From an uncultured delta proteobacterium (GTDB lineage: Bacteria > Desulfobacterota > Desulfobacteria > Desulfobacterales > JAFDCJ01): a stretch of DNA of 64,000 nucleotides. The translations under genes and the position numbers were made by a program. The notes under the pieces are model-generated. The model had not been told where the DNA came from. It was given only the letters and a program-made list of their open reading frames with translations, and did not search any database. This document shows positions 10,873 to 28,880 of this stretch, piece after piece. The DNA lies in assembly GCA_963769935.1 (NCBI GenBank), contig CAVYNY010000035.1, positions 1 to 64,000 on the forward strand. The letters are read 5' to 3'. How positions within the stretch are numbered: the first letter of the stretch is position 1; the number at the start of each line of letters is the position of its first letter.

Positions 10873-11187
10873 ATGCAGGGAATTGAGCTGGTGAAAAATC
10901 TTGCTGAACTTGATCGAGAACTCGTCAAAAAGCTCGAGGAGGCACGTCAATCAGCCGATCGCAGGCTCGCGGGCGCCCAGGAAAAGGCCCGGCGTATTCT
11001 GGATGAGGCGGAAAATCAAATCCGTCAATTAGAGGCGGCATCGAAGGCCCGCATCAGCGAGGAGAGCGAAAAGCTTGCCGGGGAAGCGCAGGCGCGGGCC
11101 GAAGCAGAGGCGCAGCGTATTTGCAGCGAGGCGGATTCGAACATCGAGCTCGCCGTCAGGTTCATTCTCTCAGAGGTGCTGCCGTGA
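10873..11187 (+). CDS. atpH: V/A-type ATP synthase subunit G (H)
   Basis: Coiled-coil protein ending AVRFILSEVLP, like the Thermus subunit G. First gene of the operon. Confidence 0.85.
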   Translation: MQGIELVKNLAELDRELVKKLEEARQSADRRLAGAQEKARRILDEAENQIRQLEAASKARISEESEKLAGEAQARAEAEAQRICSEADSNIELAVRFILSEVLP

Positions 11188-13163
11188 TCGCAGAGATGGA
11201 AAAGCTTATCATCGCCGGTCCCAAACGGCTTGCTCCCGCGATTCTTGACCATCTCCAGCGTGTCGGGGTCGTGCAGATCGATCCGCTGCGCACCGACGAG
11301 ATCAACCCATACCAACTCAGCCGTGAAGAGGAAAGTCGGCTGAAACGCTGGGGCGCAGTGGCAACCTCGGCCGACCATGGCCTGCGGCTTTTCGGACTGC
11401 GGGCGGATCCGTCCGCCAAACCGTTCGCGGGCGATATGGAGGGCGCTGAAGCCGCCGCATCAGCCGTTGAACAGCGGGTCGCCGCTCTGGCAAATGAACA
11501 GGAGCGTCTTAGGGAAGAACTGGAGTTGATTGAACAGTACGGGGCGGTTGCAGAACTCCTGGCGGAAATCGTGCAGGGTCTTGACGGGAGCCCATGGCTT
11601 GCGGTCCTGCCTTTTCTGGTGGAAAGCGCCGCAGATCTTTCACCGCTGGCGCAAGAGCTGGCATCAGAGCTCGATGACCGTTTTCTGATGGCCCATGGAC
11701 GCGCAAACGGCATCATCGCCGCTGTAATCCTCGTGCTCAAGCGCGATGCCGAGGATGCCAAAGGGATCCTGAGCCATCAGGGACTGGGAGAACTTCCCCG
11801 TCCTGAAAAATATGCCCACCTGAGCTTGAGAGCAATGGCCGAGCAGCTTGCGGAGCGTGCGCGGCGGGTTCCGGAAGCCTTGGCCTCCTCGGAGGACGAG
11901 ATGCGCCGCGATCTGATAAATTCGGGTCAGCTGCTCAAAAGTTTATGGAATCGCGCCAAGGACGAATCCGCCTGCCTCCTTGCCCTGAAGGATATGGCTG
12001 CGGCCCGGTACGGCTTCGCGCTGTTCGGCTGGGTCCCGGTGCGCCTGGAGCGCCGGGTGCTGGAGGAAATGGGTCGATTCGAACCCCTGATACACTATGT
12101 ATTTGAACCGGCCGGGGCAATAGGCGAAGCCGAGCGGGTCCCGGTTTTGCTGGAGAACCCCGCCTGGATCAAACCCTTCGAGCCCTTGATTTCTTTCCTG
12201 AACACACCGCGCTACGACAGCTGGGATCCCACGTGGGTCGTGGCCGTCTTCTTTCCGCTGTGGTTCGGTATGATTGTGGGAGACATCGGATATGGCGCCG
12301 TATTTGCCGGGCTGTCCTGGTACCTATCAGGATATGTCAGGCGCAATCGAGCGTTGACGGTGGATTTTTTTAAAATGCGGCTTGCACCGGCTCAGTTGGC
12401 CCAGGTGGTGCGCGCCGCGAAACCGATGATTTTATGGACGATGCTCTGGGGTCTGCTTTACGGGGAGTTCTTCGGCGACCTCCTCCAGCGGCTCGGCATT
12501 TTCGGCACGGCACGCCATCCCGGCTGGATCCCGTTGCTGATTCCGCGCACCAATACGGTTGCCACCGCCAACGGCTTAATTCTGCTTTCCATCGGTTTCG
12601 GTGTGTATCAGGTGCTGTACGGCTTTTATCTCAAGGCTATGCGGACACACCGCTGCGCTGAGAAGATCCACTTCTGGGAGGCCTGCGGCTACTTCGGCGG
12701 CGTTGCCGCCCTGATCCTGTTCGCCTGCGCATTTATGGCCAAGGACTTCCGTTGGTGGCTCGTGGTTCCGATGGTCGCCGGTGCGGCCGTCTTTCTGTTC
12801 GGTCTGCTGCTGGCCGGAGCCCCGCTGATGCTGGCGGAGTTGCCGACCCAGGGGGGCCACATCATGAGCTACATTCGTATTTACGCCGTAGGTCTGGCCT
12901 CGGCCATTCTTGCAAACCTGGCGACCGAGTTGGGCTTTTCGCTCTACCACCTGCTGGGGAGCGCCGGTATGATGATCGGTATGCTTGCGGGACTGCTGAT
13001 GGGCCTTGTGCTGCATGCATTGCTCATCGTACTGCTCACAGTGAGCCACTTTCTACAGCCTATTCGTCTTATTTGGGTCGAGTTTTTTACCAAGTTTGAA
13101 TTCTATACGGTCAGCGGCAGACCATATCGCCCTTTTCAATTGATCTGCAATTCTTCGTCATAA
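11184..13163 (+). CDS. atpI: V/A-type ATP synthase subunit I (a)
   Basis: GTG overlaps the G stop. IAEMEKLIIAGPK, FFPLWFGMIVGDIGYG, GHIMSYIRIYAVGLAS, QPIRLIWVEFFTKF. Confidence 0.95.
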   Translation: MIAEMEKLIIAGPKRLAPAILDHLQRVGVVQIDPLRTDEINPYQLSREEESRLKRWGAVATSADHGLRLFGLRADPSAKPFAGDMEGAEAAASAVEQRVAALANEQERLREELELIEQYGAVAELLAEIVQGLDGSPWLAVLPFLVESAADLSPLAQELASELDDRFLMAHGRANGIIAAVILVLKRDAEDAKGILSHQGLGELPRPEKYAHLSLRAMAEQLAERARRVPEALASSEDEMRRDLINSGQLLKSLWNRAKDESACLLALKDMAAARYGFALFGWVPVRLERRVLEEMGRFEPLIHYVFEPAGAIGEAERVPVLLENPAWIKPFEPLISFLNTPRYDSWDPTWVVAVFFPLWFGMIVGDIGYGAVFAGLSWYLSGYVRRNRALTVDFFKMRLAPAQLAQVVRAAKPMILWTMLWGLLYGEFFGDLLQRLGIFGTARHPGWIPLLIPRTNTVATANGLILLSIGFGVYQVLYGFYLKAMRTHRCAEKIHFWEACGYFGGVAALILFACAFMAKDFRWWLVVPMVAGAAVFLFGLLLAGAPLMLAELPTQGGHIMSYIRIYAVGLASAILANLATELGFSLYHLLGSAGMMIGMLAGLLMGLVLHALLIVLLTVSHFLQPIRLIWVEFFTKFEFYTVSGRPYRPFQLICNSSS

Positions 13164-13209
13164 AGGGCGTCGGGAAACTCGGATATCGGACTTTTAAGGA
13201 GGAAATGTA

Positions 13210-13512
13210 ATGAAAATCAAGGTGGTGTTCCTTTCAGTGTACTTGTTGCTGTGCATGTTGGCGTTCAGTGGGCCGGCCGCCGCGGCGGACGGCAATTCAA
13301 GCAAGGGTTTGATCGCCGTGGGCATGGGCCTGGCTGTAGGGCTGAGCGCCCTCGGCACGGGTTTAGCGCAGGCCCGCATCGGTGCGGCGGGCCTCGGCAG
13401 TGCCGTGGAGAAGCCTGAGTCTCTGGGACTGGCGCTCATTTTTCTGCTGCTGCCCGAAACGCTGGTGATCTTCGGCCTGGTCATTGCCTTTATTCTTTTT
13501 GGAAAGCTGTGA
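13210..13512 (+). CDS. atpK: V/A-type ATP synthase proteolipid subunit K (c/L)
   Basis: GLIAVGMGLAVGLSALGTGLAQARIG..LIFLLLPETLVIFG, with the ion-binding Glu and an N-terminal leader. Confidence 0.95.
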   Translation: MKIKVVFLSVYLLLCMLAFSGPAAAADGNSSKGLIAVGMGLAVGLSALGTGLAQARIGAAGLGSAVEKPESLGLALIFLLLPETLVIFGLVIAFILFGKL

Positions 13513-14078
13513 TGTCAAAGCTCGACGAGATACTCAAAGAAGAGGCGCTGGCGGATATCAACCGGATCCTGGAAGATTCGGATTCCAGGGCGGAGACGAT
13601 AATTCAGGAAGCCGAGACGAAGGCCTCCACCCGGCTGGCAGTCCATCGTAAAAGAGTCGAGTCCGAGGGCCGCTCTGCTAAACGCCGGACCGAAGGCGCC
13701 GCCGAACTGGCGGTCTCCACTGCCCGCATCCAGGCCAAGGGGAAGATCATCGCGCTGGTTCGCAAAAAGGCCTTGAGCGCTATCGAAGAACTGGCCGGCC
13801 GGCCCGGCTACCACAAGATTTTGACGGCGCTCGCCGAAGAGGCGATCAAGGCGGTGGACGCGGCGGAAGCCGTGGTCGTGAATCCAAACGACAAGGCGAT
13901 CCTCAGCGGCTGGGCGATGCAGAAGGGGATCGAAATCCAGACCGATCCGAAGCTGCGCCTCGGAGTTCGGCTGGTCAGCCGCAGCAGCAGGCGCAGCGCG
14001 GAAAACAGTCTCCCGGAACGGCTCGACCGCTCATGGGATACACTATCCGCCCGTGTGGCCCAGATACTCTGGAAGTGA
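13512..14078 (+). CDS. atpE: V/A-type ATP synthase subunit E
   Basis: MSKLDEIL..LRLGVRLV..ENSLPERLDRSWDTLSARVAQILW. Confidence 0.92.
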   Translation: MSKLDEILKEEALADINRILEDSDSRAETIIQEAETKASTRLAVHRKRVESEGRSAKRRTEGAAELAVSTARIQAKGKIIALVRKKALSAIEELAGRPGYHKILTALAEEAIKAVDAAEAVVVNPNDKAILSGWAMQKGIEIQTDPKLRLGVRLVSRSSRRSAENSLPERLDRSWDTLSARVAQILWK

Positions 14079-14088
14079 GGAAAAAGAC

Positions 14089-15072
14089 GTGACCGACGAT
14101 TTCGGTTATCTGAACGCCCGCATCCGGGTGAGAAGCGCCCGATTGCTGCATGAGGGTTTTTTCCGGGAGGCACTGCATCTGGGTTTTGCCGAACTGGTAA
14201 AAGTCCTTGCCGAAAGCACCTATGGTCCCGATCTGACCGGACACACGCTGGCCGATGTCGACCAAGCCGTGTCGCACCAATTGAATCGCACTACGGCAGA
14301 TCTGCCCCGCCTGGTCACGGGTAGCGCGCGCGAGGCCGTGAGCTTGATCCTGATGCGGGACGATCTTGCCAACCTGAAAATCATTCTGCGGGGCAAAGCC
14401 GCCGGATGGTCGACCGAAGACATCCTCGGCCGGCTGGGCGCCGGCACGCTTTCCGCCGACGTGTGCCGTAAACTTGCCGAGGCTCCGGACCCGACATCCA
14501 TCGCGCAAATACTTTACTTGCGAGAGCACCCGCTCGCCGGGGCCCTGCGCAGGGCGTATCGGGCCGAACATGAACCACCGGCCATGGAGGTTGCGCTGGA
14601 CCAGGCATTTTTTACCGCCACGCTGCGCCGGGCCCGGGAACTGGATCAGCCTTATCTTGCCGCGTTTCTAAGTGCCGAGATCGACGGGTTGAACCTCGCA
14701 ACAGGGGTCAAGCTGTTCACCATCGGCTTTGAGGGTCAACCGGCGCGCTTCTTCCTGAAAGGCGGCCGCGGCGTGGGGCTTCCTTTGTTTCAGCGACTGG
14801 CAGCCGGGGAGACGGCCGCTCTGGAAGAATTGGGGCATACGGATTTTGATCGCGCGGCTGAGTCAAGGGACCTGTCGACGCTGGAACGGCATCTGCGCTG
14901 TATCCTGCTGGCCAAGGCGCATGCGGGCGTCAAGGATGTGCTGGGGGCAGGTCTGGCCCTCGACTATATCCAGCGCAAATCGTGGGAGGCGGGGCGGATC
15001 CGGCTGCTATCCCGGCGGGCTTACTACAACCTGTCGCCTGCGGAAATGGAAAAGGAGTTAATCTGCCAGTGA
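14089..15072 (+). CDS. atpC: V/A-type ATP synthase subunit C (d)
   Basis: GTG start after gagg. DDFGYLNARIRVR, DLANLKIILRGK, WEAGRIRLLSRRAYY. Confidence 0.92.
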   Translation: MTDDFGYLNARIRVRSARLLHEGFFREALHLGFAELVKVLAESTYGPDLTGHTLADVDQAVSHQLNRTTADLPRLVTGSAREAVSLILMRDDLANLKIILRGKAAGWSTEDILGRLGAGTLSADVCRKLAEAPDPTSIAQILYLREHPLAGALRRAYRAEHEPPAMEVALDQAFFTATLRRARELDQPYLAAFLSAEIDGLNLATGVKLFTIGFEGQPARFFLKGGRGVGLPLFQRLAAGETAALEELGHTDFDRAAESRDLSTLERHLRCILLAKAHAGVKDVLGAGLALDYIQRKSWEAGRIRLLSRRAYYNLSPAEMEKELICQ

Positions 15073-15407
15073 AGATTGCAGTTTTGACCGACTCCGACTC
15101 GGCGGCGGGATATCGTCTCGCCGGCCTGGAAGTTGTCGTTGCCGCAGATGGCCCGGAAGCCCAAAAGATGCTGGCCGACCTGGTGCAAGCGGACGTCTAT
15201 GCCCTGATTGCAGTGAATGCGGCGTTGGTCCCGGACCCTTACCAGGTCGTCAAACGGGAAATGCGCGGTCGGGATTTCCCGGTTATGCTGCCGATTCCCT
15301 CGATAGATTCAGCCGTCGCAGACCGGGGCGAAGATGCCAAGGTATATATGCGACGTCTGATTGTGGACACCATCGGATACGAGATAAGAATAGTTGATAG
15401 TTCATAG
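15069..15407 (+). CDS. atpF: V/A-type ATP synthase subunit F
   Basis: KIAVLTDSDSAAGYRLAGLE..YMRRLIVDTIGYEI. The last residues are supplied by the adjacent repeat element. Confidence 0.92.
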   Translation: MKIAVLTDSDSAAGYRLAGLEVVVAADGPEAQKMLADLVQADVYALIAVNAALVPDPYQVVKREMRGRDFPVMLPIPSIDSAVADRGEDAKVYMRRLIVDTIGYEIRIVDSS

Positions 15408-15945
15408 CAGGTAGCTCATAGCTGATAGTTAAAGACAAAGGTTTCAGATGTTCCGCCTCAGGCGGACCGCCGGCCTGACAAGCGGCCAGTTTGATCAAAA
15501 ACGAAACTTTAAAAAGCGAATATCGAATAATGAATATCGAATCCACCTGAGGCGGACAAGTGTCGAAGGAAGGCATTCTGTCTATTTTATAAAAAAGACT
15601 GAGCGTAGCGAAACCATCTGGAACTCCCCCTTTCCTAAAGGGCGGGGGGGATTTTTGAAATTCTGCGGTTCGTTATTCTGCTGTTCTGCGGTTCGCTGTT
15701 TCGTTTAGGTGAGCTTTCATACAAGGTGTCGGCAAAGGCTAAGGACCGAAGGATAATGGTTAAAGGCGAAAGGCGCAAGGCTGCAGGCGAGTAATAGGAG
15801 GGGATGGACAAATATCAGAGGTTTTGCTTTACTGCTTCCCAGCTTCCCGGCCTCTAATCTATTTCATCTGTCGTCTGTCTTCCGACTATGAACTATGAGC
15901 TATCAGCTATCAGCTTTTTTCATCTGACACCTGAAACCTTTAAAA
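15385..15945. repeat. Nested heptamer-repeat/MITE-like insertion between atpF and atpA
   Basis: Left gatagttcatag..tagctcatagctgatag is inverted against right ctatgaactatgagctatcagctatcag. aggtttcagatgt is inverted against ctgacacctgaaacct. Internal palindromes tccgcctcaggcgga and tccccctttcctaaagggcggggg. Confidence 0.7.
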
Positions 15946-15975
15946 GCAGCTAAGGAACTAATTACAGGAGGAAAA

Positions 15976-17712
15976 ATGATCCGGGGAAGCGTGCTGAAGA
16001 TTGCAGGGCCGGCGGTTATCGCCAGGGATATGCTGGGTGCGCGTATGTACGACATCGTAAAGGTGGGCGACGAGAAGTTGATCGGTGAAATCATCCGGTT
16101 GGATGGTGATACGGCATTTGTTCAGGTTTACGAGGACACTTCGGGACTGACGGTCGGGCAGCCGGTGGTCTCAACCGGCATGCCGCTTGCCGTCGAGCTG
16201 GGTCCGGGGTTGCTGAATTCGGTTTACGACGGCATTCAGCGCCCGCTCGACAAGATCAGGGAGAAAACCGGCGACTTCATCTCCCGCGGCGTGGAAGTTG
16301 CGGCTCTGGACCGCAGCAAGAAATGGAACTGGATCCCGCGGGTAAACCCCGGTGACTCGGTCACCGGGGGGATGACCCTCGGCACCGTTCAGGAGTTCTC
16401 GTTTACCCACAAAATCATGGCGCCGCCGGAGGCGGCCGGCATCGCCGGCAAGGTGCAGCCGGCCGGCGCCTGCACTGTGCAAACGCCGGTCGTGGAGCTC
16501 GAGGACGGCCGCGAATTGACAATGTCGCATATGTGGCCGGTCCGGCGCGCCCGCCCCGTGCGGGAAAAGCTTGATCCCATGGAGCCCTTTCTCACGGGCA
16601 TGCGGATTCTGGACGTGCTGTTTCCCATTGCCATGGGCGGAACCGCTGCGATTCCCGGACCTTTCGGCTCCGGCAAGACGGTAACGCAGCAGTCCCTGGC
16701 AAAGTGGTCGAACGCCGATATCGTGATCTACGTCGGATGCGGCGAACGCGGCAACGAAATGACCGATGTCCTTACGGAGTTTCCCGGTCTGGAGGACCCC
16801 GCCAGCGGCGAACCATTGATGCACCGCACGGTGCTGATCGCCAACACCTCAAACATGCCGGTGGCGGCCCGGGAGGCCAGCATCTATGTGGGTGTAACCC
16901 TGGCCGAGTATTTCCGGGACCAGGGATATGCGGTGGCTTTGATGGCCGATTCCACCAGCCGCTGGGCCGAAGCCCTGCGTGAAATATCTTCACGGCTCGA
17001 AGAAATGCCGGCCGAAGAAGGCTATCCCCCTTACCTGTCCGCCCGGCTGGCCGCTTTCTACGAAAGGGCCGGACTTGTTACCACGCTGGGCGGAGAACGC
17101 GGTGCGGTCTCGGTCGTGGGGGCCGTATCGCCCGCGGGCGGCGACATGTCCGAGCCGGTCACCCAATCCACCCTCCGCATCGCAGGCGCCTTCTGGCAAT
17201 TGGATGCTTCCTTGGCGTACCGTCGCCACTTCCCTGCGATCAACTGGAACGGCTCGTACTCGCTTTACATCGAGCTGCTGGACAGCTGGTATCACGAGAA
17301 CCTGGGTCCGGACTATACCGGGCTGCGGGACGCCGTAGGCCGGCTGCTGCAGCAGGAGGCGTCGCTGCAGGAAATGGTGCAGCTGGTCGGCCCGGATGCC
17401 TTGCAGGATCATGAGCGGCTGGTGATAGAGGTCGGCCGCATCCTGCGGGAAGATTTCCTGCAGCAGAACGGCTTTCATGAAATCGATGCCTACTGTTCCA
17501 TGAAAAAAGCCAAGGGGCTGATGCAGATGGTGACCGCCTTCCACCAGCAAGCCGATGCCGGACTCAAAGCGGGCATTCCCATCGACGACATCATTCAGAA
17601 TCCCGTACTGGAAAAGATTGCCCGGGCGCGCTATGTCGCGGAGGAGCGTTTCGCGGACTACTTAAAAGAGGTACGCGACGAGATTGCCGAAGCATTCAGG
17701 CAGAAAGACTGA
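15976..17712 (+). CDS. atpA: V/A-type ATP synthase catalytic subunit A
   Basis: P-loop [44 protein letters not shown] aggagg. Confidence 0.98.
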
Positions 17713-17726
17713 GGAGAACAGCGGCA

Positions 17727-19140
17727 ATGGATCTTTTGAAAAAGGAGTATCATGCGCTGAGCTACATTTCAGGCCCTTTGCTTTTTATGGAGAAGGCCGC
17801 GGATTTGGCATACAATGCGATTGTCGCCATCAAAGACGGCACCGGCCGGATACGCGGCGGGCAGGTTATCGAGGTGTCGGAAGAATATTGCGGTGATTCA
17901 GGTTTTCGAAGAAACTGCCGGGCTGGATCTCTCGCGCACCTCGGTGAGCCTTGTGGAGCAAACGGCTCGTCTGGGAGTGTCCCGGGATATGCTGGGCCGT
18001 CGTTTCGATGGTGTGGGCAAGCCGATTGACGGGCTGCCCGCGGTAGCGGCAGAAAAGCGCCTCACAATTGCGGGCATGCCGATCAACCCGGTGGCACGCC
18101 GCAAGCCCGAGGCGTTCATCCAAACCGGCATTTCAACCATCGACATCATGAATACCCTGGTTCGAGGACAGAAACTGCCCATTTTTTCGGGTCCCGGTCT
18201 GCCTGCCAACGAGCTTGCGGCCCAAATCGCGCGGCAGGCCCATGTGCCGGGGGAAAACCTGCAGTTTGCCGTGGTCTTCGCCGCGATGGGGGTGACCCAA
18301 AGAGAGGTCAGCTATTTTACAGGGGAGTTCGAAAAAACCGGCGCTCTTTCCCGCTCGGTCCTTTTTCTAAACAAGGCGGACGACCCCACGATCGAACGGA
18401 TTCTAACGCCCCGCATGGCGCTGACGGTGGCCGAACATCTGGCCTACGGACACGGCTACCACGTGCTGGTCATCTTGACGGACATGACCAACTACTGCGA
18501 AGCATTGCGCGAGGTGGGGGCTTCCCGGGGTGAGATTCCCGGCCGCCGCGGTTATCCGGGTTATATGTACACCGACCTTTCCACCATCTATGAACGGGCC
18601 GGTGTGATAGCAGACAGCCCGGGCTCCGTAACCCAGATTCCGATCCTGTCAATGCCGGGCGGCGACCGCACCCATCCGATTCCCGACCTGACGGGCTACA
18701 TTACCGAAGGTCAGATCCAGCTCTCAAACGAACTGCACCGCAAGGGCATCTTTCCGCCTATCGATCCGCTGCCCTCGCTTTCAAGGTTGGCGAACAGTGC
18801 GATTGGAAAAGGCAAGACGCGGGAAGATCACAAGCAGGTTTCCGATCAGCTGTTCGCTGCGTACGCCAACGGAGTCGACATCCGCAAGCTGGTGGCGATC
18901 ATCGGCGAGGAGTCGCTGACCGACAACGATCGGCACTACCTGGAGTTTGCGGATGCTTTCGAAAAAGACTTCATCCACCAGGGCCGCCAAAACCGTGATC
19001 TGGACGAATCGCTGGACCTTGCCTGGGCCCTGCTCTCGATACTGCCCGAGTCGGAGCTGAAGCGGATTTCCTCGGACCACATCGGCAAATACTATGGTGC
19101 CAGGCTCAAAGCATTCTGGGAGACGCCGGAGGAATTCTAA
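17727..19140 (+). CDS. atpB: V/A-type ATP synthase subunit B (one +1 frameshift at ~17889)
   Basis: [19 protein letters not shown] joins [13 protein letters not shown] after removing one T (gaatattgcg). [31 protein letters not shown]. Confidence 0.95.
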
Positions 19141-19145
19141 AAGGT

Positions 19146-19778
19146 ATGACGATGAATGAAACAAGTCCCACCCGGATGAACCTGCTGACCCGCCGCAGCC
19201 AATACGCGCTGGCGACAAGGGGTGTGAATTTGCTGCAAAAGAAGCGGGATGCGCTCGTGCAGGAATTCTTCACGCTGGTGCACGAGACCCTGGAAGCCCG
19301 CCGGCAGTTGAATGAAGCCGGCCGGGAGGCATACATGGCTCTGATCCTGGCGAAATCCTTCGACGGTCCGAAGGCCGTGGAGACCCTCTCGCTGAGCGTA
19401 CCGGACGTCTCCGATGTCCGCATCGGGGTGGAGAATATCTGGGGCACCCGGGTGCCGGTTCTGGCGGCGGAATGGCCCCAGGGTGCCGCCGTCAGCCCCC
19501 TTTTCGTGGGGGGGCAGACGCTGGCCGCACAGGCTGCCTTTCGAAAGTTCGGACGGGCGCTGATCGGGGTGGCGAACACCGAATCGCGGCTGCGCCGCAT
19601 CGGAGAAGAAATCAAAAAGACCGCCCGCCGGGTGAACGCCCTCGAACTGGCGGTTATCCCCGGCTTGGGTTCGCAGATACGCTACATTCGTCAGGTGCTC
19701 GATCAACAGGAGCAGGAGGATATCTTCCGGCTCAAACGCGTCAAGCGCAAGATCGAAGCGCAAAGCCAGCGTAGGTGA
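19146..19778 (+). CDS. atpD: V/A-type ATP synthase subunit D
   Basis: SPTRMNLL..GVNLLQKKRDALV, IKKTARRVNALE, EDIFRLKRVK. Confidence 0.96.
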   Translation: MTMNETSPTRMNLLTRRSQYALATRGVNLLQKKRDALVQEFFTLVHETLEARRQLNEAGREAYMALILAKSFDGPKAVETLSLSVPDVSDVRIGVENIWGTRVPVLAAEWPQGAAVSPLFVGGQTLAAQAAFRKFGRALIGVANTESRLRRIGEEIKKTARRVNALELAVIPGLGSQIRYIRQVLDQQEQEDIFRLKRVKRKIEAQSQRR

Positions 19779-19850: not shown

Positions 19851-19915
19851 TCGCAGCGCTTAAAATAACGAGTCGGCGAGCTTGTCCGCCGGTCACGTTG
19901 ATTTTGTTGTTGGAA
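19851..19915 (-). other. attC site (last in array; R' degenerate, GCT in place of GTT)
   Basis: Minus strand: TTCCAAC aacaaaat C aacgTgaccggcg..cgccgactcgtt attttaagc GCTGCGA. R'' is complementary to GTTGGAA at the 5' end of the same cassette. Confidence 0.8.
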
Positions 19916-19925
19916 ACAATAATGC

Positions 19926-20261
19926 TTATTCAAAATTAAAGGATTTAAAAATATTGCCTAATGAAATTTCGTTTTCCAAAACATTCTTTAATTCATTTCC
20001 ACATTCTTCAGAACAAAACAGTAACATCCCGTCATTACCGTCCTGTTTAGCTTCGGAACCTTCTAATGTTACCAACATATAGATCGGTCTCTCATCCGAA
20101 ACTAAAGTTATATTAATGCAATGCCCTGCATATTCAGATAAATCAACACCTGGTCTAAATTTTACACCGGCCCCAAAAACTTCCACATAATCACTGATTG
20201 GTTTCCTACACCAAGTACACTTTCCTAATGCTTCTTTATCAGGAATAATATTGTATTCCAT
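19926..20261 (-). CDS. Integron cassette protein, hypothetical (CxxC..CxxxC, possible Zn-binding)
   Basis: AT-rich ORF between two attC sites. RBS gaggagga. CTWC and CSEEC. Confidence 0.8.
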   Translation of the reverse strand: MEYNIIPDKEALGKCTWCRKPISDYVEVFGAGVKFRPGVDLSEYAGHCINITLVSDERPIYMLVTLEGSEAKQDGNDGMLLFCSEECGNELKNVLENEISLGNIFKSFNFE

Positions 20262-20299
20262 AAGAACCTCATTCCTCCTCTATTATTATTTCTCTTTAT

Positions 20300-20407
20300 T
20301 TCCAACGTCTGCGGATCACCTGCAGGCGGTACAGCTTTCGAGCCCCAAATACCTTTTACGCTAAACTCAGCAAGTTTTTCCTGTCAGGTGCATCCGTCTC
20401 GTTATGT
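20300..20407 (-). other. attC site
   Basis: Minus strand: ACATAAC gagacggat G cacctg ... caggtg atccgcagac GTTGGAA, with an extrahelical G. Confidence 0.9.
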
Positions 20408-20743
20408 CATTGGGCTATTCTCTGATATTGTTTCTGAAGGTTTGATCGGAATAATTCGTCGCTCGATGTCCGTCCAAATTTTACGCTTCATCATTCGTAA
20501 ATCAAACTCATTCTGCAAATTCAGCCAGAACTGAGCTTCGATGCCAAAATAGCGCTGCAATCTCAAAGCGGTATCAGCAGTAATAGCTCTTTTCCCGTTG
20601 ACGATCTCACTAATCCGATTAGGCGGCACGGAAAGATCCCGAGCAAGCTGATTTATGCTGATATCCAGCGGTTCCATGAAATCGTCCCGCAAGATTTCAC
20701 CCGGAGTTATCGGATCAAGAAGTTTGTTCGTATTCATAATCAC
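20402..20743 (-). CDS. higA: HigA antitoxin (XRE HTH)
   Basis: PITPGEILRDDFMEPL..NRISEIVNGKRAITADTALRLQRYFG..FWLNLQ. Confidence 0.95.
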   Translation of the reverse strand: MIMNTNKLLDPITPGEILRDDFMEPLDISINQLARDLSVPPNRISEIVNGKRAITADTALRLQRYFGIEAQFWLNLQNEFDLRMMKRKIWTDIERRIIPIKPSETISENSPMT

Positions 20744-20746
20744 ACC

Positions 20747-21025
20747 TCAATGGTAATCGACAATTTCAACATTATATGCATTTCCATCATGCCACTCAAA
20801 ACAGATGCGCCATTGCTTATTGACGCTAATAGCATATTGTCCTTTTCTATCTCCCCCTAGAGAGTGAAACTTGTTACCTGGATTGAGCATCAATGTTTCA
20901 AGGCTAGGAGCAGCATGAAGTACCATAAGCCTTTTCCTTGCCTGCCTTTCAAACGACTGAAAACGGCGGACGCGTTGGTCGTTGAACAGTTTTTCGGTAT
21001 CTCGGCAGGCAAATGATTTGATCAT
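20747..21025 (-). CDS. higB: HigB toxin (RelE/ParE superfamily)
   Basis: MIKSFACRDTEKLF..PGNKFHSLGGDRKGQYAISVNKQWRICFEW..VEIVDYH. Toxin lies upstream of the antitoxin. Confidence 0.95.
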   Translation of the reverse strand: MIKSFACRDTEKLFNDQRVRRFQSFERQARKRLMVLHAAPSLETLMLNPGNKFHSLGGDRKGQYAISVNKQWRICFEWHDGNAYNVEIVDYH

Positions 21026-21060
21026 ATTGCAATGGTATTACGCGCAACGTAATATGTCAA
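21026..21060 (-). promoter_or_regulatory. sigma70 promoter of higBA with a palindromic operator in the spacer
   Basis: Minus strand: TTGACA-17 nt-TACCAT-6 nt-ATG. Palindrome tattacg-N5-cgtaata at 21036-21054. Confidence 0.8.
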
Positions 21061-21082
21061 GCGGTTTATTCAATAAGGGAAG

Positions 21083-21110
21083 GCATAACGCCGGCGGTCA
21101 CTGGTTGCCA
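21083..21110 (-). other. Half attC site (L'-R') truncated by the RAYT element
   Basis: Minus strand: caaccagtgaccgccggc GTTATGC at the 5' boundary of the higBA cassette. It matches that cassette's R'' ACATAAC at 6 of 7 positions. Confidence 0.65.
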
Positions 21111-21120
21111 TTAAGAGAAT

Positions 21121-22085
21121 TCCTCAGGGGACGGGCCAAGCTAAGTCGTTGTCCTCAGGGGACGGGCCAAGCTAAGTCGTTGCATTTTCAAAGTTTTGAT
21201 CCCAAACATAGGTGTTTTGGGCACCTATATCGCTCTTTTTCGCCCCAAAATGGGCTATATAGGGATATTGCACTTCTTTAAGTTGAAACGATTCTCCCGT
21301 TTCAAGGACCTTTCGTCCCAATGCCATGGCACCCATCAGCACTTTTACATTTTGAATAAAAGATTCACTCCCAACAGCGATGCTCTCTGTCCATTTGCCG
21401 TCACGGAAATTATCACCATCAGAAAGGCAGCTTTCCACCCATTGCTTGTGAGCCGTTTTCACATGCTCGTAAGAATCAAATCCAAGGAGTTCTTTTAACT
21501 TTTCGTAGTTGATCAGAATCTTTTTCCGTTTTGGTTGCTGAATTTCATTGTAGCCTGAATATGGCCACTCGCTTGGATGTTTTACGACTCCCGCCCTCAC
21601 CATATTAAGGTCGATATAGACAATGCATTTTTTTAAATGATCGCCATCCTCGATGGCGGTCGCATGATAACGGTCTTCCCAGTAAGCCCCTTTCCGTGCC
21701 TTCCGTTGATTAAATTCCTGACCGGTTCTACCTGCTATCAGCCTGATCGAATCAGGAATGACCTCCCTGGATTTATCATCGGCAACGAGTAGGTGAATAT
21801 GATTCGAAGTAACCGTATAATTTAAGACGCTTAAGCCATATCGCCTTCTCGCTTCAAAAAGCCACTGCAGCCACCTCCGCCGATCTTTTGCGAACTTCAG
21901 CAGAAACTCTCTCTTATGGCATCGATGGGTAATATGCCATATCTGGCCCGGTATGTAGTGCCTTTTCGCTCTTGCCATTGCTATGTCGCTGTTTTTTGCC
22001 CCAAAAAGCTCAATATAGCCCTGTTTTAAGGGGTACAACTAAGCTCATTCTCAATATTTATAGCCTGTTAGCGTGGCCCGTCCCC
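21121..22085 (-). mobile_element. RAYT (REP-associated tyrosine transposase) element with inverted ends
   Basis: ggggacgggccaagctaa (21158-21175) and ttagcgtggcccgtcccc (22068-22085) form an inverted repeat matching at 17/18. A 31-bp end sequence is tandemly duplicated at 21121-21182. Confidence 0.8.
21172..21978 (-). CDS. RAYT/TnpA-REP HUH Y1 transposase
   Basis: MARAKRHYIPGQIWHITHRC, NYTVTSNHIHLL (HUH), WEDRYHA, YIDLNMVRAGVV, WPYSGY. Confidence 0.92.
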   Translation of the reverse strand: MARAKRHYIPGQIWHITHRCHKREFLLKFAKDRRRWLQWLFEARRRYGLSVLNYTVTSNHIHLLVADDKSREVIPDSIRLIAGRTGQEFNQRKARKGAYWEDRYHATAIEDGDHLKKCIVYIDLNMVRAGVVKHPSEWPYSGYNEIQQPKRKKILINYEKLKELLGFDSYEHVKTAHKQWVESCLSDGDNFRDGKWTESIAVGSESFIQNVKVLMGAMALGRKVLETGESFQLKEVQYPYIAHFGAKKSDIGAQNTYVWDQNFENATT

Positions 22086-22460
22086 AAACCACGTCACTAA
22101 AACCGTTTATTTGTTCCCATTGCGGCGGCAGCCTTAAATACATCGCCTCGGTTCTGCCCTTTGAGCTGATGCAAGCCGGAGCCGGATAGAAGCGCATAGA
22201 CCGACAATTTGCCTGATCAATCAAGCCGTCTTCGATCTACCCAAACGGCACAGGATCCTTGCGCACTTAAAAAAGGAGTTTATATCTTTTTATAAAAATT
22301 ACTAGGCTGGATTACTGTAAACAACCAAAATCTATTGTAGCTTCGTCTGCTTGAAAAATCTATTTTAACCAGCTATGCTCTGCAAATTTTTAATTGCAGA
22401 GCGCTTCAACCCTCCTCTGCACGCAAGCTTTACCCATATCAACAACCGGGCTTCTTGAAC
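22086..22460 (+). mobile_element. IS91-family 3' remnant (transposase C-terminal Zn ribbon and terminus)
   Basis: KPFICSHCGGSLKYIASVLPF..* (stop 22187-22189). The non-coding tail ends in tttacccatatcaacaaccgggcttcttgaac, abutting an attC-like hairpin. Confidence 0.55.
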
Positions 22461-22510
22461 AATGGATTGAAAACGACCTTGCAGGTCGTGTCAATCCTTA
22501 TGGGTTATGA
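22454..22510 (-). other. attC-like site (atypical spacing)
   Basis: TCATAAC lies 13 nt after the cassette stop. Hairpin ggattgacacgacc/ggtcgttttcaatcc, then GTT at the IS91-like junction. Confidence 0.55.
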
Positions 22511-22522
22511 TTAGAGAAACTA

Positions 22523-23296
22523 TCAATCTGCTTCTTTAAAAGTCGTTATAATAAAATCAATATAATCTTGTTTAACTTTTCCTAACTCAACCCCTTGGAT
22601 ATAAATTTTTATTTCCTTATTTGGATTTGGAAATAACCATAGGGTGACCTTCTCCAAGGATGATGGATCACCAACCTGAAATCCCTTACAATGCTTTGCT
22701 TCAAAATAATAAATTGTTTTAGGTACCTGCGCACCTGTGTTAGCGTATAGCCACTTATCAATTAATTGATAATATAAGAGAGTAGTTTCATTAATTGGTT
22801 TAAAAATAGCAAAAATGGTTGGTTTCGAATAGAAGGATGATTTTACATATTCAAAATTATTTATGAATTTGTTTTTGAAAATTTTTTTGAAATGTGAAAC
22901 ATCATCTTCCTTTTCACTTGTTTTTAAGTATTGGTACATATTCGATGGGTAATCCGTTGGTTCATGAATAATTACTCCATACTCATGCACAAAAAATATT
23001 CCTTTTACATTATCAAGATCAAGAAACTCTGGAGATTTATTCAACGGCACACTAATTTGGTACCCAAATGCACTAAAAAAGCTACTGTCTTTAACGTGGA
23101 CATGAGTCAAATTCCGTAACTTTGGTGTTATATGCAAGTATGAATCTTGCTTTTCATCCCTGCTGTATATTAAATACGTTGCATATATCTGCCTCCCATG
23201 TATTGCCGCAAACAGAACTAAAGCGATGATTAAAACTAAGCTGATCTTAAACCATCTATTTTTGATAATTTTTATCAAAGAACTTTGCATGCCCAT
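22523..23296 (-). CDS. Integron cassette protein, hypothetical, N-terminal TM anchor
   Basis: 257-aa AT-rich ORF flanked by attC sites. Confidence 0.8.
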   Translation of the reverse strand: MGMQSSLIKIIKNRWFKISLVLIIALVLFAAIHGRQIYATYLIYSRDEKQDSYLHITPKLRNLTHVHVKDSSFFSAFGYQISVPLNKSPEFLDLDNVKGIFFVHEYGVIIHEPTDYPSNMYQYLKTSEKEDDVSHFKKIFKNKFINNFEYVKSSFYSKPTIFAIFKPINETTLLYYQLIDKWLYANTGAQVPKTIYYFEAKHCKGFQVGDPSSLEKVTLWLFPNPNKEIKIYIQGVELGKVKQDYIDFIITTFKEAD

Positions 23297-23299
23297 AAA

Positions 23300-23404
23300 A
23301 CATACCGTTGCGGATAACCAGCGGGCAAAAGCCCATTCAAATTTGAACGTAATTTGCGATAAACCGCATCAGTTGTCCCGTCTGGTTAATCCGCCTGGTT
23401 AGGT
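23300..23404 (-). other. attC site
   Basis: Minus strand: ACCTAAC caggcggat T aaccagAcggg ... cccgctggtt atccgcaac GGTATGT. R' has GGT or has lost one T. Confidence 0.85.
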
Positions 23405-23742
23405 GCTTGGTGCTTATTGTTACTAAAAATATGAATAGTCAGAGCTAGTTGGCAAAGTCCCAGTGCAAATAGTAAGACGGCTAAGTATTTGAACATTCGT
23501 CCGAACGATTTGCTTGCCCTCTTCAAATGTTCGGTTTTTTCTAACTCAACCTTTAATAACTGTTTCGTTTCGGCAATTGAAAGATGTATTTCTTTTTCTG
23601 CGTCTATTGAATTGGATAATTTTTGAGTTGTCACATGAGTATCAAAAGCAACTATTTTATTGGCGTAGATATAAAAAAAGATTGAACAAGCGATCAAAAT
23701 GATTGCAATTCCCAAAAGACCTATTAATTCTTTGAGTTTCAC
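23386..23742 (-). CDS. Integron cassette protein, hypothetical 2-TM membrane protein
   Basis: AT-rich ORF whose stop lies inside the attC. RBS aagga. Confidence 0.8.
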   Translation of the reverse strand: MKLKELIGLLGIAIILIACSIFFYIYANKIVAFDTHVTTQKLSNSIDAEKEIHLSIAETKQLLKVELEKTEHLKRASKSFGRMFKYLAVLLFALGLCQLALTIHIFSNNKHQAPNQAD

Positions 23743-23765
23743 CTATCGTTCCTTTTGAAATTTCA

Positions 23766-23892
23766 ACCTAACGCCAAAAATCACGGGCCGGGCGGCGAAT
23801 CACGAAAACGGTCAGTGAACGAAAACGGTTTATAAAAGACAGACTTCAATTACTTCACGCTGTAGCCCGGTCCAGTGCATTTTTTGTTAGGT
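23766..23892 (-). other. attC site
   Basis: Minus strand: ACCTAAC aaaaaat G cac T ggaccgggc ... gcccggcccgtg atttttggc GTTAGGT, with two extrahelical bases. Confidence 0.9.
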
Positions 23893-24186
23893 TCTTTTCA
23901 TTCTTTTTGAAAATTGTATTATGCCAATAGCGCCTAATGCCGAAATCATGAAACCCAAGAGGGCTTTAATAATATAGGTCAGATAAATAAATTGTGTCAT
24001 CTGGGCTGATTGCTCCGGTGTGACCGAATAACCATTAGGAACTTGACCGGACATTATCAGTTTTATATCCGAATAAAAGGAAACCAAGACTTGTCCGGCA
24101 ACATGAGGATAGACAGACTGATAGATATAGCAACATCCAAAAATAATTACTGTGATCCCCAAAAAGTATATGATTTTGTAACTCAT
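23887..24186 (-). CDS. Integron cassette protein, hypothetical 2-TM membrane protein
   Basis: The stop codon TAA is part of R'' (ACCTAAC). ATG lies 7 nt after the upstream R'. Confidence 0.8.
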   Translation of the reverse strand: MSYKIIYFLGITVIIFGCCYIYQSVYPHVAGQVLVSFYSDIKLIMSGQVPNGYSVTPEQSAQMTQFIYLTYIIKALLGFMISALGAIGIIQFSKRMKRT

Positions 24187-24283
24187 CTAAAAACCTAACG
24201 GGGCGCGGGTGAGCAGCGGGCCAAATTCAGACCTATCCTGCACGACCTTTACGGTGAACCGCGATCTTCACGCCGTCTGCTCA

Positions 24284-24750
24284 AGTGGCAGGATACTTAT
24301 CATGGCCTTCTTCGAAAGCAAGGAAGGCTAGCACTATTTATATCAAAGTTCAATTAGCCAGTTACCCGCAGCAAAGTTGCCTGTGCTCCGACGAGCTACG
24401 CGAGGGCCCATTCTCGCACAGGCAACTTTGCTGCTGGATGCCGGGCATAGAACCAATCCTTGTGAAAGGCGGAAAACTCTTTTATCGTAGATAGTGACCA
24501 CCACTAACTTATAACAAAAGGAGGTATCCCGTGAGATTCTACACCCAGCAACATCAACATTACTGCGGAATCGATCTGCATGCAAGAAAGATGTATGTGT
24601 GTATTCTAAACAGTATCGGCAAAATCGTTTTGCACAAAAATATCAAGACTGATCCTGAGATATTATTTGAGATCTTATTTCCCTTTTTGCCCGAAGTCGT
24701 CGTTGGCGTTGAGTGCATGTTCTCTTGGTATTGGATCGCGGACCTGTGCC
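24284..24750 (+). mobile_element. IS110-family element, 3'-truncated: ~250-bp structured left non-coding region plus the N-terminal part of the DEDD recombinase
   Basis: RBS aggaggt, GTG at 24531, YCGIDLHARKMYVCILN..VVGVECMFSWYWIADLC. IS110-like sequence ends at ~24750. Confidence 0.88.
24300..24515 (+). ncRNA. Candidate IS110 bridge/guide RNA
   Basis: Hairpin gccttc/gaaggc (24305-24328) and a perfect 19-bp stem (24368-24386 with 24416-24434) upstream of the recombinase. The RNA function is inferred from IS110 biology only. Confidence 0.5.
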
Positions 24751-24758
24751 GTTATAAC

Positions 24759-25097
24759 CTAAAAATTAATATCGAATATAATGATGGAAATAAAAATTAA
24801 AGGACCAAATATAACTAATGACAACATTAAAATTACTATGAAATAAATAGATATTAGTTTAATTCGTGCAATATTTTTTTGCTCAGGTGCATTGTATTCG
24901 TTATTACAGCCCGGGCAAACTACTAAGTCTTGATTATGAATCATTTCGTAAGCTGAAGGAGGATACAATTTTTTTAGAGCTGTCTTTAAGTCAGTTTTAA
25001 TTTGAGAGAATTTAAATCCAAGTCTTGGATACCTATACTTTAGATTGCTTTGCACTCTAAATTCTTGAGCGCATTTTGGGCACTTGGTAATAGTCAT
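24759..25097 (-). CDS. First integron cassette protein: two CxxC motifs plus a C-terminal TM
   Basis: CPKC..CPGC, hydrophobic C-terminus. Bounded by GTTATAA (5') and TTATAAC (3'). Confidence 0.8.
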   Translation of the reverse strand: MTITKCPKCAQEFRVQSNLKYRYPRLGFKFSQIKTDLKTALKKLYPPSAYEMIHNQDLVVCPGCNNEYNAPEQKNIARIKLISIYFIVILMLSLVIFGPLIFISIIIFDINF

Positions 25098-25103
25098 TAT
25101 GCG

Positions 25104-25140
25104 TTATAACCAGTGATTGAGTCGTTTCTTTATAATTACA
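25104..25140 (-). other. Putative attI / array start
   Basis: G|TTATAA is complementary to the first cassette's R'', but no attC hairpin lies upstream of it. Confidence 0.5.
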
Positions 25141-25419
25141 AAAAATAAAAGTGATTGATCGGGAAAAGGATTATTTTATTGGCAATTCTAACTGCATAAC
25201 TCCGTATATTGGGCTTATATAGAAAGCTGGTTAACGATGGAACAGATCCCACAAACCGCAAAAGTGTGCTTTGCTGCGATACTTTATCGAAAGCGATATC
25301 CCTAAAAAGTTGCGCCTTTTCTATCTGAAATGGGTGCGATATTATTTGGATTTCTGTCGAAAATAGAATTTCAAAGAAACTGAAAAAATGAGCCTCCCAA
25401 ACTTTACCCCTTAGTTTAG

Positions 25420-26860
25420 ATATAAACCCTCCACCTCCGGTGGAGGACGCGGATAGGTTCAGCCGATCCGGTGATAACCAGACTGTCATTCAAAAACTCG
25501 AACCACGAAAATCGAAATTTGAAACCCATACGAAATCTTGGACACAGATTTTCACGGATGCACACAGATTCAAAAACCAATGAACCAATTCGCCTTCGGC
25601 GAGAAAAAAACAGTCTAATTTCTTCCTGCAAACTATGCTGAGCTGCACCTTCCGCCGCCAGGCGGACCTAAAATAATTTATCTGTGAAAATCTGTGAAGA
25701 TCCGTGTCCTAAGTTTTTTGGTTCAGATGGCCGGTCTGGGTGCTTGTTCATCATATATCGTAAACAAAAACCTAAGCCCAACTGGTCTGGGCCAGGAATG
25801 TCGGATTTTAAGTAATCCGAATTAGTCCCGCCCCCTCCAAGGGGGCTTCCTGAGGCCTCCCGCTCTGCGGGAGGAGCACTCACTTGCATAAACAACATGG
25901 CAAAGATTAGATAATGGTCCGCAATTATTGCCAATATCACAATCGGACACGGATAAGCACTGATCACACAGATACATTTTCGGAATTCGGAATTAGTGAA
26001 TAACCTCTGACCCGGCCGCTGTGGAAACCAAAAATATTTGCATTTTCGCCCATCCGCGAAGTTCCTGAAGATCTGTGTCCACCGTCAAAAGGTTTTAATT
26101 TCGTATGTAAAACTGCCTGGCAGCTTTATTTTTTTTGGGTGAGGATTTGAGACTTGTGCTAACCCTTTTTACAACATCAGGGTCTAAAGCGATAATAGCG
26201 GAAAAAATGGCATGTGTAAATACGGTTAAATACTCAAAAGGGAATGCGTATAAATACCTATTGGATTGAGTAGAAATACCTAATTAGGGAGGTTAAAGGC
26301 TAAAGGTCAAAGGTAAAAGGATAACGGATAGAAGGCGGGCATCGGAGATGTCAGGTCATAGATGTGAGTTCATAGTTTATAGCTCCCCGGTTAAATTCGC
26401 TGCGACCCGGTCAAACAAGAAAAAAGGTTTAACAGGGCAGGCTGATCTATCGATATTTAACGGGGTAAACATAGTTCATAGGGAACGGATGAAAACGGAG
26501 AAACGGCATAAGAATGGAAGGTGGGAAGGTGAGAGGGTGGACGGATAGAAGATCAGAAATTCAGAAGAGCAGAAGAGCAGATGGGGGGCACCGGAGGTTA
26601 CACGGACGAAACGGAGAACCGGTGAAAAGGCGAATCGGAGGCTTGGAAAAATAGAAATGGGGAAACGGTCAGTGGGGGAAACGGGGAATCGGAGATCCGG
26701 AGAAACGGTGTGAAACAAAGAAGCTGAGAAGAGCAGAAGATCAGCCTACAAAAACGGAAAACGGCAGGGAATATAGAAGCTCGGAGGATCAGAAGAGCAG
26801 ATGGGGGGGCATCGGAAATGCCCAGCTCACAGCTCCCCAGCTAAGCTCCTCCGACATGGA
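25420..26860. repeat. Non-coding mosaic of short-period repeats and nested MITE-like palindromes
   Basis: gacacagattttcacggat..acacagatt is inverted against atctgtgaaaatctgtgaagatccgtgtc. Runs of acggagaa and agaagagc. ccccggttaaat..atttaacgggg enclosing cccggtcaaac..gtttaacaggg (26385-26465). Confidence 0.7.
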
Positions 26861-26937
26861 CCTCAGGAGCAGGTTTTCAATGTTGGAACTTACTGTCTCC
26901 ATGATCGCGACCAGAGGCGCAGGCAAACTGGTGTCCG

Positions 26938-28234: not shown

Positions 28235-28531
28235 CTACTGCTTAGATGCTAAAGAACCATTTAAATATTTGTGAATAATGCTTGAAATAAGCGTTTGATA
28301 TGGAATACCCTCTTCAATAGCCTTTATCTGGATTTGGTGATAATCTTTTTGAGATAATCGAAGATTAATGCGTTTATCTTTTCTGAGAGTATTTCGAGCC
28401 GCTTCGACCGCTGCTTTCTTCTTTTGCTTAAAATCCTTAACAGGACGCCATTCATCGGTCTCAAGAGATTTCATCAAATCGCTTTCTTCTTTATCTAGTG
28501 GCTTAAATGCCTTTTTGTTCAATTTATTCAT
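28235..28531 (-). CDS. RHH (CopG/BrnA-like) antitoxin
   Basis: RKDKRINLRLSQKDYHQIQIKAIEEGIPYQTLISSIIHKY. Confidence 0.85.
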   Translation of the reverse strand: MNKLNKKAFKPLDKEESDLMKSLETDEWRPVKDFKQKKKAAVEAARNTLRKDKRINLRLSQKDYHQIQIKAIEEGIPYQTLISSIIHKYLNGSLASKQ

Positions 28532-28670
28532 ATTTCCCCCTTTAACCCGAAACGTTTTGTATATTTACGACTAGGAAAAGCAGTTTTGAGAAAAATTTCA
28601 TTTTGGTTTTCGACGAAGGGAACTATAAAAGCATGATTTTCGATTTCCAAAATGTATATTTGTGGTTCGA
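28528..28670 (-). pseudogene. BrnT-like toxin, N-terminally truncated
   Basis: QIYILEIENHAFIVPFVENQNEIFLKTAFPSRKYTK overlaps the antitoxin start. The N-terminal part is absent. Confidence 0.7.
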
Positions 28671-28880
28671 ATTGAGACATTTCCCTTTTAGAATAAACCT
28701 CGAATCGCCTGGCCGCAACGGCATTGATTTTGAACCTGCAAATTAGCATTACAATGCCCTGCATGGATGATGGATGTCAACTCCGTAATGACGAGCAGCT
28801 ATGAAAACGTCAGAACGATATCCTTATTCCTCGATTGCGTGCAATGCCGCCTGGGTGGGGGGCCCGGAGGGCCGGGAAGC

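Follow-up and report, generated by a model that had tools for sequence, protein, structure and literature searches.

The stretch between positions 19851 and 25140 of a 64,000-nucleotide window (the whole piece of DNA analysed here, positions 1 to 64,000 of contig CAVYNY010000035.1, assembly GCA_963769935.1, from an uncultured delta proteobacterium) carries an integron cassette array: cassettes of one orientation, attC recombination sites, an attI site and the remains of an integron integrase gene, intI. The array region is AT-rich and lies between a V/A-type ATPase operon, whose atpD gene (PF01813) ends at 19778, and a marC-family gene. It holds six cassette slots with every open reading frame (ORF) on the minus strand (four of 112, 99, 118 and 257 aa, then the higB and higA genes, then one of 111 aa), and the GC content of the slots, 0.30–0.43 against 0.51 for the genome, agrees with the six AT-rich minus-strand cassettes proposed in an earlier sequence-only reading of this DNA. 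The GTT heptamer at the 5′ end of each slot had also been described as complementary to the AAC heptamer at its own 3′ end; we confirmed this exactly in four of the six slots (TTATAAC, ACCTAAC twice and TTCCAAC) and nearly so in the other two. A single exact heptamer match is expected by chance at ~0.4%, assuming that the four free bases are equiprobable.

To locate the attC sites, we trained a covariance model on 12 attC-like sites taken from other contigs, with three close homologues of window sites set aside; a structural descriptor scan of the genome (27 matches) was the source for picking attC-like sites. Across the 64-kb window, with filters off, the model returned exactly four matches at E ≤ 1, all on the minus strand and all within the array, with E-values of 0.005–0.09 on a rough calibration. 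Two of the matches are the intact sites attC2 (23766–23892, minus strand, 20.0 bits) and attC5 (20300–20407, minus strand, 19.2 bits), the latter with close homologues on contigs C17 and C27. The third, attC3 (23300–23404, minus strand, 20.8 bits), has an intact fold and an R′ core of GGT instead of GTT. The bottom strands of all three form hairpins that beat shuffled sequences (z of −3.2 for attC2, −3.1 for attC5 and −2.8 for attC3). The fourth, attC6 (19851–19915, minus strand, 16.1 bits, E 0.086), closes the array on its distal side, where 72 bp separate it from the stop of the convergent atpD; its R″ and L boxes are canonical and its R′ is degenerate (GCT). The heptamer GTTATTT at 19863 was considered as the last R′ and rejected, as it is the L′ box of attC6. 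A further site, attC1 (24193–24757, minus strand), belongs to a multi-copy attC family of this genome and is interrupted, with R′, L′, loop and L″ at 24193–24290 and R″ at 24751–24757.

With four model matches, the locus exceeds the pair of same-strand attC sites, separated by less than 4 kb, that define a cluster of attC sites that has no integron integrase (CALIN). The attC-model check suggested by the sequence-only reading, carried out here with a substitute covariance model, gave four matches confined to the array and three folding bottom strands, and the proposal of a CALIN-like array is supported by these matches together with the conservation of attI. The count of seven attC-like sites was too high: only four sites are intact and a fifth is split by a piece of an IS1111-type element; at 21083–22510 one finds a lone R′/L′ half, two pieces of mobile elements and a lone R″. 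On other contigs of the genome, the model found 22 attC-like matches, nine of which are training sites. The strict descriptor was insensitive, detecting one of the four intact window sites at a threshold of 11 and scoring the reconstructed attC1 at zero, so its counts are lower bounds.

At the other end of the array lies attI, together with a decayed intI promoter region (25104–25236), with its core GTTATAA at 25110–25104 on the minus strand. The boundary at 25104 had been proposed as a putative attI without an attC hairpin, and this was borne out: no hairpin forms (z +1.3), and the motif found there is conserved upstream of intI. The attI-flank motif occurs six times in the genome (C7:184870, C11:466748, C16:347514, C18:80714, C28:54229 and C35:25108, the last being the window copy), and the attI motif stands approximately 130–165 nt ahead of the intI start both here and in related integrons. 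The segment 25104–25236 aligns with the region upstream of intI in six other loci, which had been selected for carrying the attI motif. Within it, at 25190–25210, we observed a motif, CTAACWG-N-ATAAC, that is conserved between the intI promoter and start codon of long-form integrons (loci L129, L132, L134, L143, L144 and L150) and is possibly a candidate binding site for the integrase or a regulator.

The attI separates the first cassette from an intI pseudogene stub (25237–25441, plus strand) of ~68 codons, which comprises the N-terminal extension domain only, the catalytic domain being gone. The stub is broken by a frameshift near codon 15–19 and by two stops (six-frame reading), and it is divergent from the cassettes, in the canonical position beside attI. 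It shares 43% identity over 53 aa with the 460-aa integrase of locus L130 (E 6e-9) and aligns with the N-terminal part of a degenerate integrase encoded on contig C16. An N-terminus of this type was found in 35 of 201 genomes searched; among the 30 loci listed, 11 run on as frames of 432–506 aa, and all four relatives tested exceed the TIGR02249 cut-off (373–384 bits against 265). Homology to intI stops where a multi-copy non-coding repeat, or several, begins (25410–25720, 85% identical over 301 nt to contig C21, with shorter matches on further contigs); a palindrome lies at 25426–25448. The wider interval between the stub and marC (25410–26900) is a patchwork of multi-copy non-coding repeats and strand-biased purine-rich stretches. 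The sequence-only reading had stated that no integrase neighbours the array. This holds for a functional intI, as no PF00589 or TIGR02249 match exists anywhere on the contig (C35), and fails for the stub, which had been missed.

The genome search for intI that had been suggested likewise returned fragments only. No intact intI was found in the assembly: the best TIGR02249 match reached 164 bits against the cut-off of 265, full-length IntI queries gave nothing but fragments, and every integron-integrase match in the genome is fragmentary, frameshifted or internally deleted. Since six copies of the attI motif and many attC sites accompany integrase matches that are all broken, this genome holds several dead integrons. 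At C16:347677–348526 (L002, L129), a long-form intI with a frameshift and an internally deleted middle adjoins attI and a SnoaL-like cassette; another IS91-type right end sits at the R″ of that cassette.

All three mobile-element insertions in the array (IS1111-type, Y1 and IS91-type) had been overlooked by the earlier reading. The interruption of attC1 is the left 460 bp of an IS110/IS1111-type insertion sequence (IS) at 24291–24750 on the plus strand, inside the site and next to its R″. It comprises a sub-terminal repeat, a leader and the first 74 codons of a DEDD transposase that faces against the cassettes and matches PF01548 and NF033542 partially, below the cut-off. Relatives of this remnant have 347-aa ORFs. 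All six full relatives examined carry both sub-terminal repeats and a tail of ~0.55 kb, and in all six the right end consists of the matching sub-terminal repeat, one base and then GTT; the window copy keeps the left repeat and has its right part deleted. An environmental contig (run X1) joins 24290 to 24751 via two letters, which restores a 5-nt spacer before R″ (one contig, with a short side of 29 letters), and in six of ten related insertions the left flank is an attC arm according to the descriptor. A hairpin with 22-bp arms in the leader (24365–24437) is common to many genomes, even without the transposase. The insertion fits the IS1111-attC group (ISKpn4, ISPst6 and ISPa25) as the available part of PMC11187229 describes it, namely a DEDD transposase, sub-terminal inverted repeats and insertion at one end of attC; that text refers to Tetu and Holmes 2008 and to Post and Hall 2009. 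Unlike those elements, the window copy retains only its left 460 bp, and it is set beside the named ones by their description.

The boundary between cassettes 5 and 4 (21083–22510) is more heavily rebuilt. It begins with the lone R′/L′ half of an attC (21083–21120, minus strand), which is cut off by a Y1 (IS200-like or RAYT-like) transposase element at 21121–22085 on the minus strand (ORF 21172–21978, PF01797). This element has 18-bp terminal inverted repeats, one end being tandemly duplicated (31 bp), and its ends are common to other copies. The transposase scores 79.1 bits against NF047646 (RAYT; cut-off 80), and its flanks are single 18-bp inverted repeats rather than arrays of repetitive extragenic palindromes. 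The genome contains 13 further elements of this kind, and eight of the 14 lie within 5 kb of an attC, against ~4% of random positions; the attC list behind this count was merged by hand, and mobile-element hot spots confound it.

Next to the Y1 element lies a 418-bp 3′ remnant of an IS91-family element of the recombinase-plus-Y2 type (22086–22503, plus strand). It holds the last ~33 transposase codons (stop at 22189), a non-coding tail, a CTTGAAC box at 22454 and a strong hairpin at 22464–22497 (z −5.3). The remnant frame is 64% identical over 28 aa to a full transposase, P0001 (E 5e-6), which is an IS91 transposase by NF033538 (375 bits, cut-off 125), and the last 56 nt are 98% identical to the full element at locus L043. 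The end of the remnant at 22503 abuts exactly the R″ GTT of cassette 4, whose lone R″ box (22504–22510, minus strand) is all that is left of an attC otherwise replaced by the IS91-type end. The supposed attC-like hairpin at 22454–22503 is thus the right end of an IS91-family element. A reading of 22454–22510 as a short attC was rejected, as its right spacer is 3 nt, the attC model does not match it and the hairpin accompanies the transposase from genome to genome. A group II intron as the source of the 22454–22503 end was also rejected, as the upstream frame is the C-terminus of a Y2 transposase and the full relatives encode a recombinase and a Y2 transposase.

An environmental contig carries a ~90% identical copy of cassette 4 with another left neighbour, the match starting at 22507, and shows an ordinary-looking attC arm where the window has the IS91-type end. 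Because the 30 visible letters of this arm fail to pair with the 21083 half site, the view of 21083–21120 and 22504–22510 as halves of one attC is unsupported; at least one cassette was therefore probably deleted together with most of the element, and the half site probably derives from a cassette since lost. The genome has three copies of the IS91-type end, each halting at GTTA beside a convergent ORF end, and in all three of its IS91-type remnants an end resembling that of the Y1 element is found either right at the truncation point or slightly to its left.

Beyond this genome, the IS91-type end matched 54 of 301 genomes searched. Full relatives encode a tyrosine recombinase (PF13495, PF00589) and a Y2 transposase (PF14319, PF04986; NF033538). 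We inspected 43 loci, taken from the best matches and from multi-copy genomes, and parsed both ends in 38; the counts include several copies per genome, and copies within a genome or in related genomes are dependent. In 32 of the 38, the left heptamer exactly matches the reverse complement of an R″-like box inside the element, near its right end; in the other six it is one base off. The exact pairs occur as four types, that is, they co-vary. Most distinct right junctions from the fetched loci and the genome open with GTT (46 of 56: 32 GTTA, 8 GTTG, 5 GTTC and 1 GTTT), although they were parsed by pattern and a few are probably mis-cut. The IS91 family inserts before GTTC or CTTG at its ori end, a rule that these elements do not follow. 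Judging from the sequences, the element behaves like an IS91-family member with a different target rule. When empty targets were rebuilt, the strict descriptor scored 11 of 22 elements with a GTTCAAG-type end as having entered an attC at R″ (one of the 11, L097, with 47 nt, may be a chance match), and likewise three of 18 elements of more distant types, against 0.8% of 20,000 random YAAC sites. Inserts consisting of the hairpin only (L090, L094 and environmental run X8) begin with G-TTGAAC and not C-TTGAAC; this start with G sets the exchange behind the first base, in the manner of an integrase-type crossover. The right ends of L093, L048 and L052 show short tandem repeats (6–8 nt, ending in G) ahead of the final GTT, which suggests repeated or slipped strand exchange at the junction.

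These features lead us to lean, with only modest confidence, towards regarding the 418-bp remnant as the mark of a third class of attC parasite, after the IS1111-attC elements and the group IIC-attC introns: a self-propelled cassette. The Y2 transposase would make a single-stranded circle; its two ends would fold to give a junction that resembles an attC and carries complementary heptamers, and an IntI-related recombinase encoded by the element would insert it at G|TT, in this clade mainly at host R″ boxes and backwards with respect to the array. Alternatively, the element could be a plain rolling-circle IS, with a Y2 transposase that inserts ahead of any GTT-purine. Its occurrence at attC R″ boxes would then come from their exposure as single strands and from the tolerance of arrays to insertion, and not from recombination of a cassette-like kind. 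This we rate as possible, if somewhat doubtful. Against a simple IntI-like mechanism, and in keeping with a plain IS, the recombinase lacks the IntI-specific insertion (a 25-residue gap) and scores 179 bits against the TIGR02249 cut-off of 265, and the window hairpin has no attC model match, although the model weakly matches four copies of a distant relative's end (16–18 bits). The distant relatives lie mostly outside recognisable attC sites, and 11 of the 22 close relatives fall below the descriptor threshold. What a plain IS explains poorly is the share of close relatives at attC R″ relative to random YAAC sites, the co-variation of the left heptamer with the internal box in four exact pair types, and the G-TTGAAC start of the hairpin-only inserts, which puts the crossover after the first base.

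The closest described elements are IS91-family members with an upstream tyrosine recombinase gene (ISAzo26, ISWz1, ISShvi3 and ISSod25 in the ISfinder grouping), which we presume to be related to the window family, the likeness being drawn from their description. The relatives of the window remnant share the PF13495 and PF00589 recombinase and the PF14319 and PF04986 transposase with this group, and differ in that their junctions read GTTA or GTTG far more often than the GTTC of IS91. In the literature, ISShvi3 has been found adjacent to attC (PMC9229058), and attC sites have been found at or after ISCR28 (PMC12772301); in the available parts of both papers, these statements include no fixed R″ insertion point, element-owned hairpin end or complementary terminal heptamers. 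The analysis of the ISCR28 end and attC is given in PMC12772301 as “data not shown” or as supplementary material, at least in the portion available, and may bear on prior description of R″ targeting. The accessible portions of PMC7923331, PMC11322121 and PMC8876359 contain nothing on IS91-type insertion at attC R″. Overall, full-text literature searches turned up no IS91-family element with a fixed attC R″ insertion or cassette-like complementary ends, a weak absence, as subscription papers and ISfinder entries are mostly uncovered. Group IIC-attC introns, according to the parts of PMC8876359 and PMC9229058 available, are similarly mobile, come between a cassette gene and its attC and usually lie in the orientation opposite to the array; in contrast, no reverse transcriptase or intron domain was seen here, and the end at 22503 comes from an element with a Y2 transposase.

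Taken together, the locus is very probably a chromosomal integron cassette array whose intI has been reduced to a 5′ stub beside a conserved attI, the array itself being likely frozen and decaying. In the history we propose, a long-form IntI would have inserted at least six circular cassettes singly at attI, with crossover at G|TT leaving complementary heptamers at the cassette ends, and the intI body would then have been deleted at or near the multi-copy repeat. Two attC-seeking elements would have entered R″ ends, facing against the cassettes: the IS1111-type element in attC1 and the IS91-family recombinase-plus-Y2 element at cassette 4. The Y1 element would subsequently have landed in the IS91 copy, and a deletion would have removed most of that copy, probably with at least one cassette. 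Toxin-antitoxin (TA) cassettes stabilise arrays, as stated in the part of PMC11023631 available, and higBA is therefore likely to protect the distal array by slowing its loss. As for remaining activity, the intact attC sites are predicted substrates for IntI supplied in trans, and attC3 (GGT core) and attC6 (GCT core) would be expected to work poorly. Only the folded bottom strand of attC recombines, and for this reason an incoming IntI could use the intact sites.

Several points weigh against this history. The covariance model is home-made from 12 sites, with roughly calibrated E-values, and stands in for the IntegronFinder model; the fold of attC6 is no better than shuffles (z −0.4); and the order of events is read from nesting alone. 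No sigma-70 consensus resembling the cassette promoter Pc was found on the minus strand of 24950–25500, in an insensitive scan and with the intI body, a frequent place for Pc, gone. The assembly is 96.7% complete in 41 contigs, and an intact intI could sit in a gap. This last point opens the way to an array that is still live, with an intact integrase elsewhere, absent from the assembly, serving this attI and the other five in trans. The well-kept attI motif with its six genome copies and the attC-like matches on other contigs, training sites among them, are compatible with such a state, and half of all CALINs lie in IntI-encoding genomes according to the available text of PMC4889954. However, the integron-integrase matches of the assembly are all fragments, frameshifted or internally deleted, and R′ cores with mutations, together with insertions left unrepaired, point to a lack of recent turnover, so that we consider a live array improbable. 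More improbable still is an origin in which cassettes went into secondary sites, or in which a rearrangement parted them from a distant intI, the stub being unrelated. These are recognised CALIN routes in the part of PMC4889954 available, and the distal junction does have a non-canonical R′, but attI, the promoter region and the start of intI follow one another as they do in intact integrons, spaced and oriented as expected, which largely refutes such an origin. The stub lies next to attI in the canonical place and divergent orientation of an intI, and the proteins related to it are full integron integrases; the array therefore appears from its sequence to have arisen through loss of intI in place and not by secondary-site insertion.

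Under the definition given in the available text of Cury et al. 2016 (PMC4889954), the decayed integron is a CALIN. It resembles the CALINs described there in having about five attC sites, at least two of them on the same strand, no catalytic intI in its neighbourhood, cassettes of unknown function and IS elements within the array, and differs from them in retaining attI and an N-terminal intI stub. That survey, as far as its available text goes, searched for pseudogenes by the C-terminal domain of IntI and detected such remains close to 15 of 279 CALINs. An N-terminal stub such as 25237–25441 would be invisible to such a search. With the sedentary chromosomal integrons carrying TA cassettes, as presented in the available part of PMC11023631, the locus shares an intI divergent from attI, a single cassette orientation and a two-gene higBA cassette; in contrast to them, its attC sites are small and heterogeneous, its integrase is dead and it belongs to a long-form IntI lineage (430–506 aa) with an N-terminal extension.

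The contents of the cassettes, all on the minus strand, are mostly without recognisable function. The ORF of cassette 1 (24759–25097, 112 aa) has CxxC zinc-ribbon motifs and a predicted C-terminal membrane segment, its zinc-ribbon matches being weak and below the cut-off. Cassette 2 (23887–24186, 99 aa) encodes a hydrophobic protein of no family, cassette 3 (23386–23742, 118 aa) a protein hydrophobic at both ends with no family above the cut-off, cassette 4 (22523–23296, 257 aa) a protein of an uncharacterised family with an N-terminal membrane anchor, and cassette 6 (19926–20261, 111 aa) a protein with CxxC pairs from another uncharacterised family. Cassette 5 (20402–21025) carries the higB toxin (20747–21025) and higA antitoxin (20402–20734) genes, both with intact frames, and matches PF05015 and, above the cut-off, TIGR02607. 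The five cassettes without a TA pair gave no match above the cut-off in Pfam, NCBIfam or PADLOC, and the look-alikes of cassettes 4 and 6 in the Atlas are clusters without names. Relatives of cassette 4 were found in three of 200 other genomes, and the attC model matched none of their four short loci. No orthologous empty locus turned up: at E 1e-30, the flanking atpD matched nothing in 22 other genomes of the genus. This atpD belongs to a V/A-type ATPase operon at 11121–19778, in which the B subunit is seemingly split into two frames (17727–18029 and 17815–19140). Outside the array, a small AT-rich gene pair at 28235–28764 has the look of a TA module (BrnT/BrnA-like by eye only), and the attC model has no match there.

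Overall, this is a genuine small decayed chromosomal integron, one more CALIN of a known kind of system, and its added value lies in the visible intI stub and in two attC sites that unrelated elements have disrupted at one and the same end. With attI and the start of intI still in place, the array shows its origin unusually clearly, which bears on how CALINs arise. The genome contributes three IS91-type remnant insertions and no intact element, the window copy being the 418-bp remnant. If the ends of the IS91-type elements do form an attC-like junction used by their own recombinase, the family would offer a minimal, testable model that connects rolling-circle transposition with single-strand recombination of the integron kind, and insertion of IS91-plus-recombinase elements would be a route by which arrays get broken.

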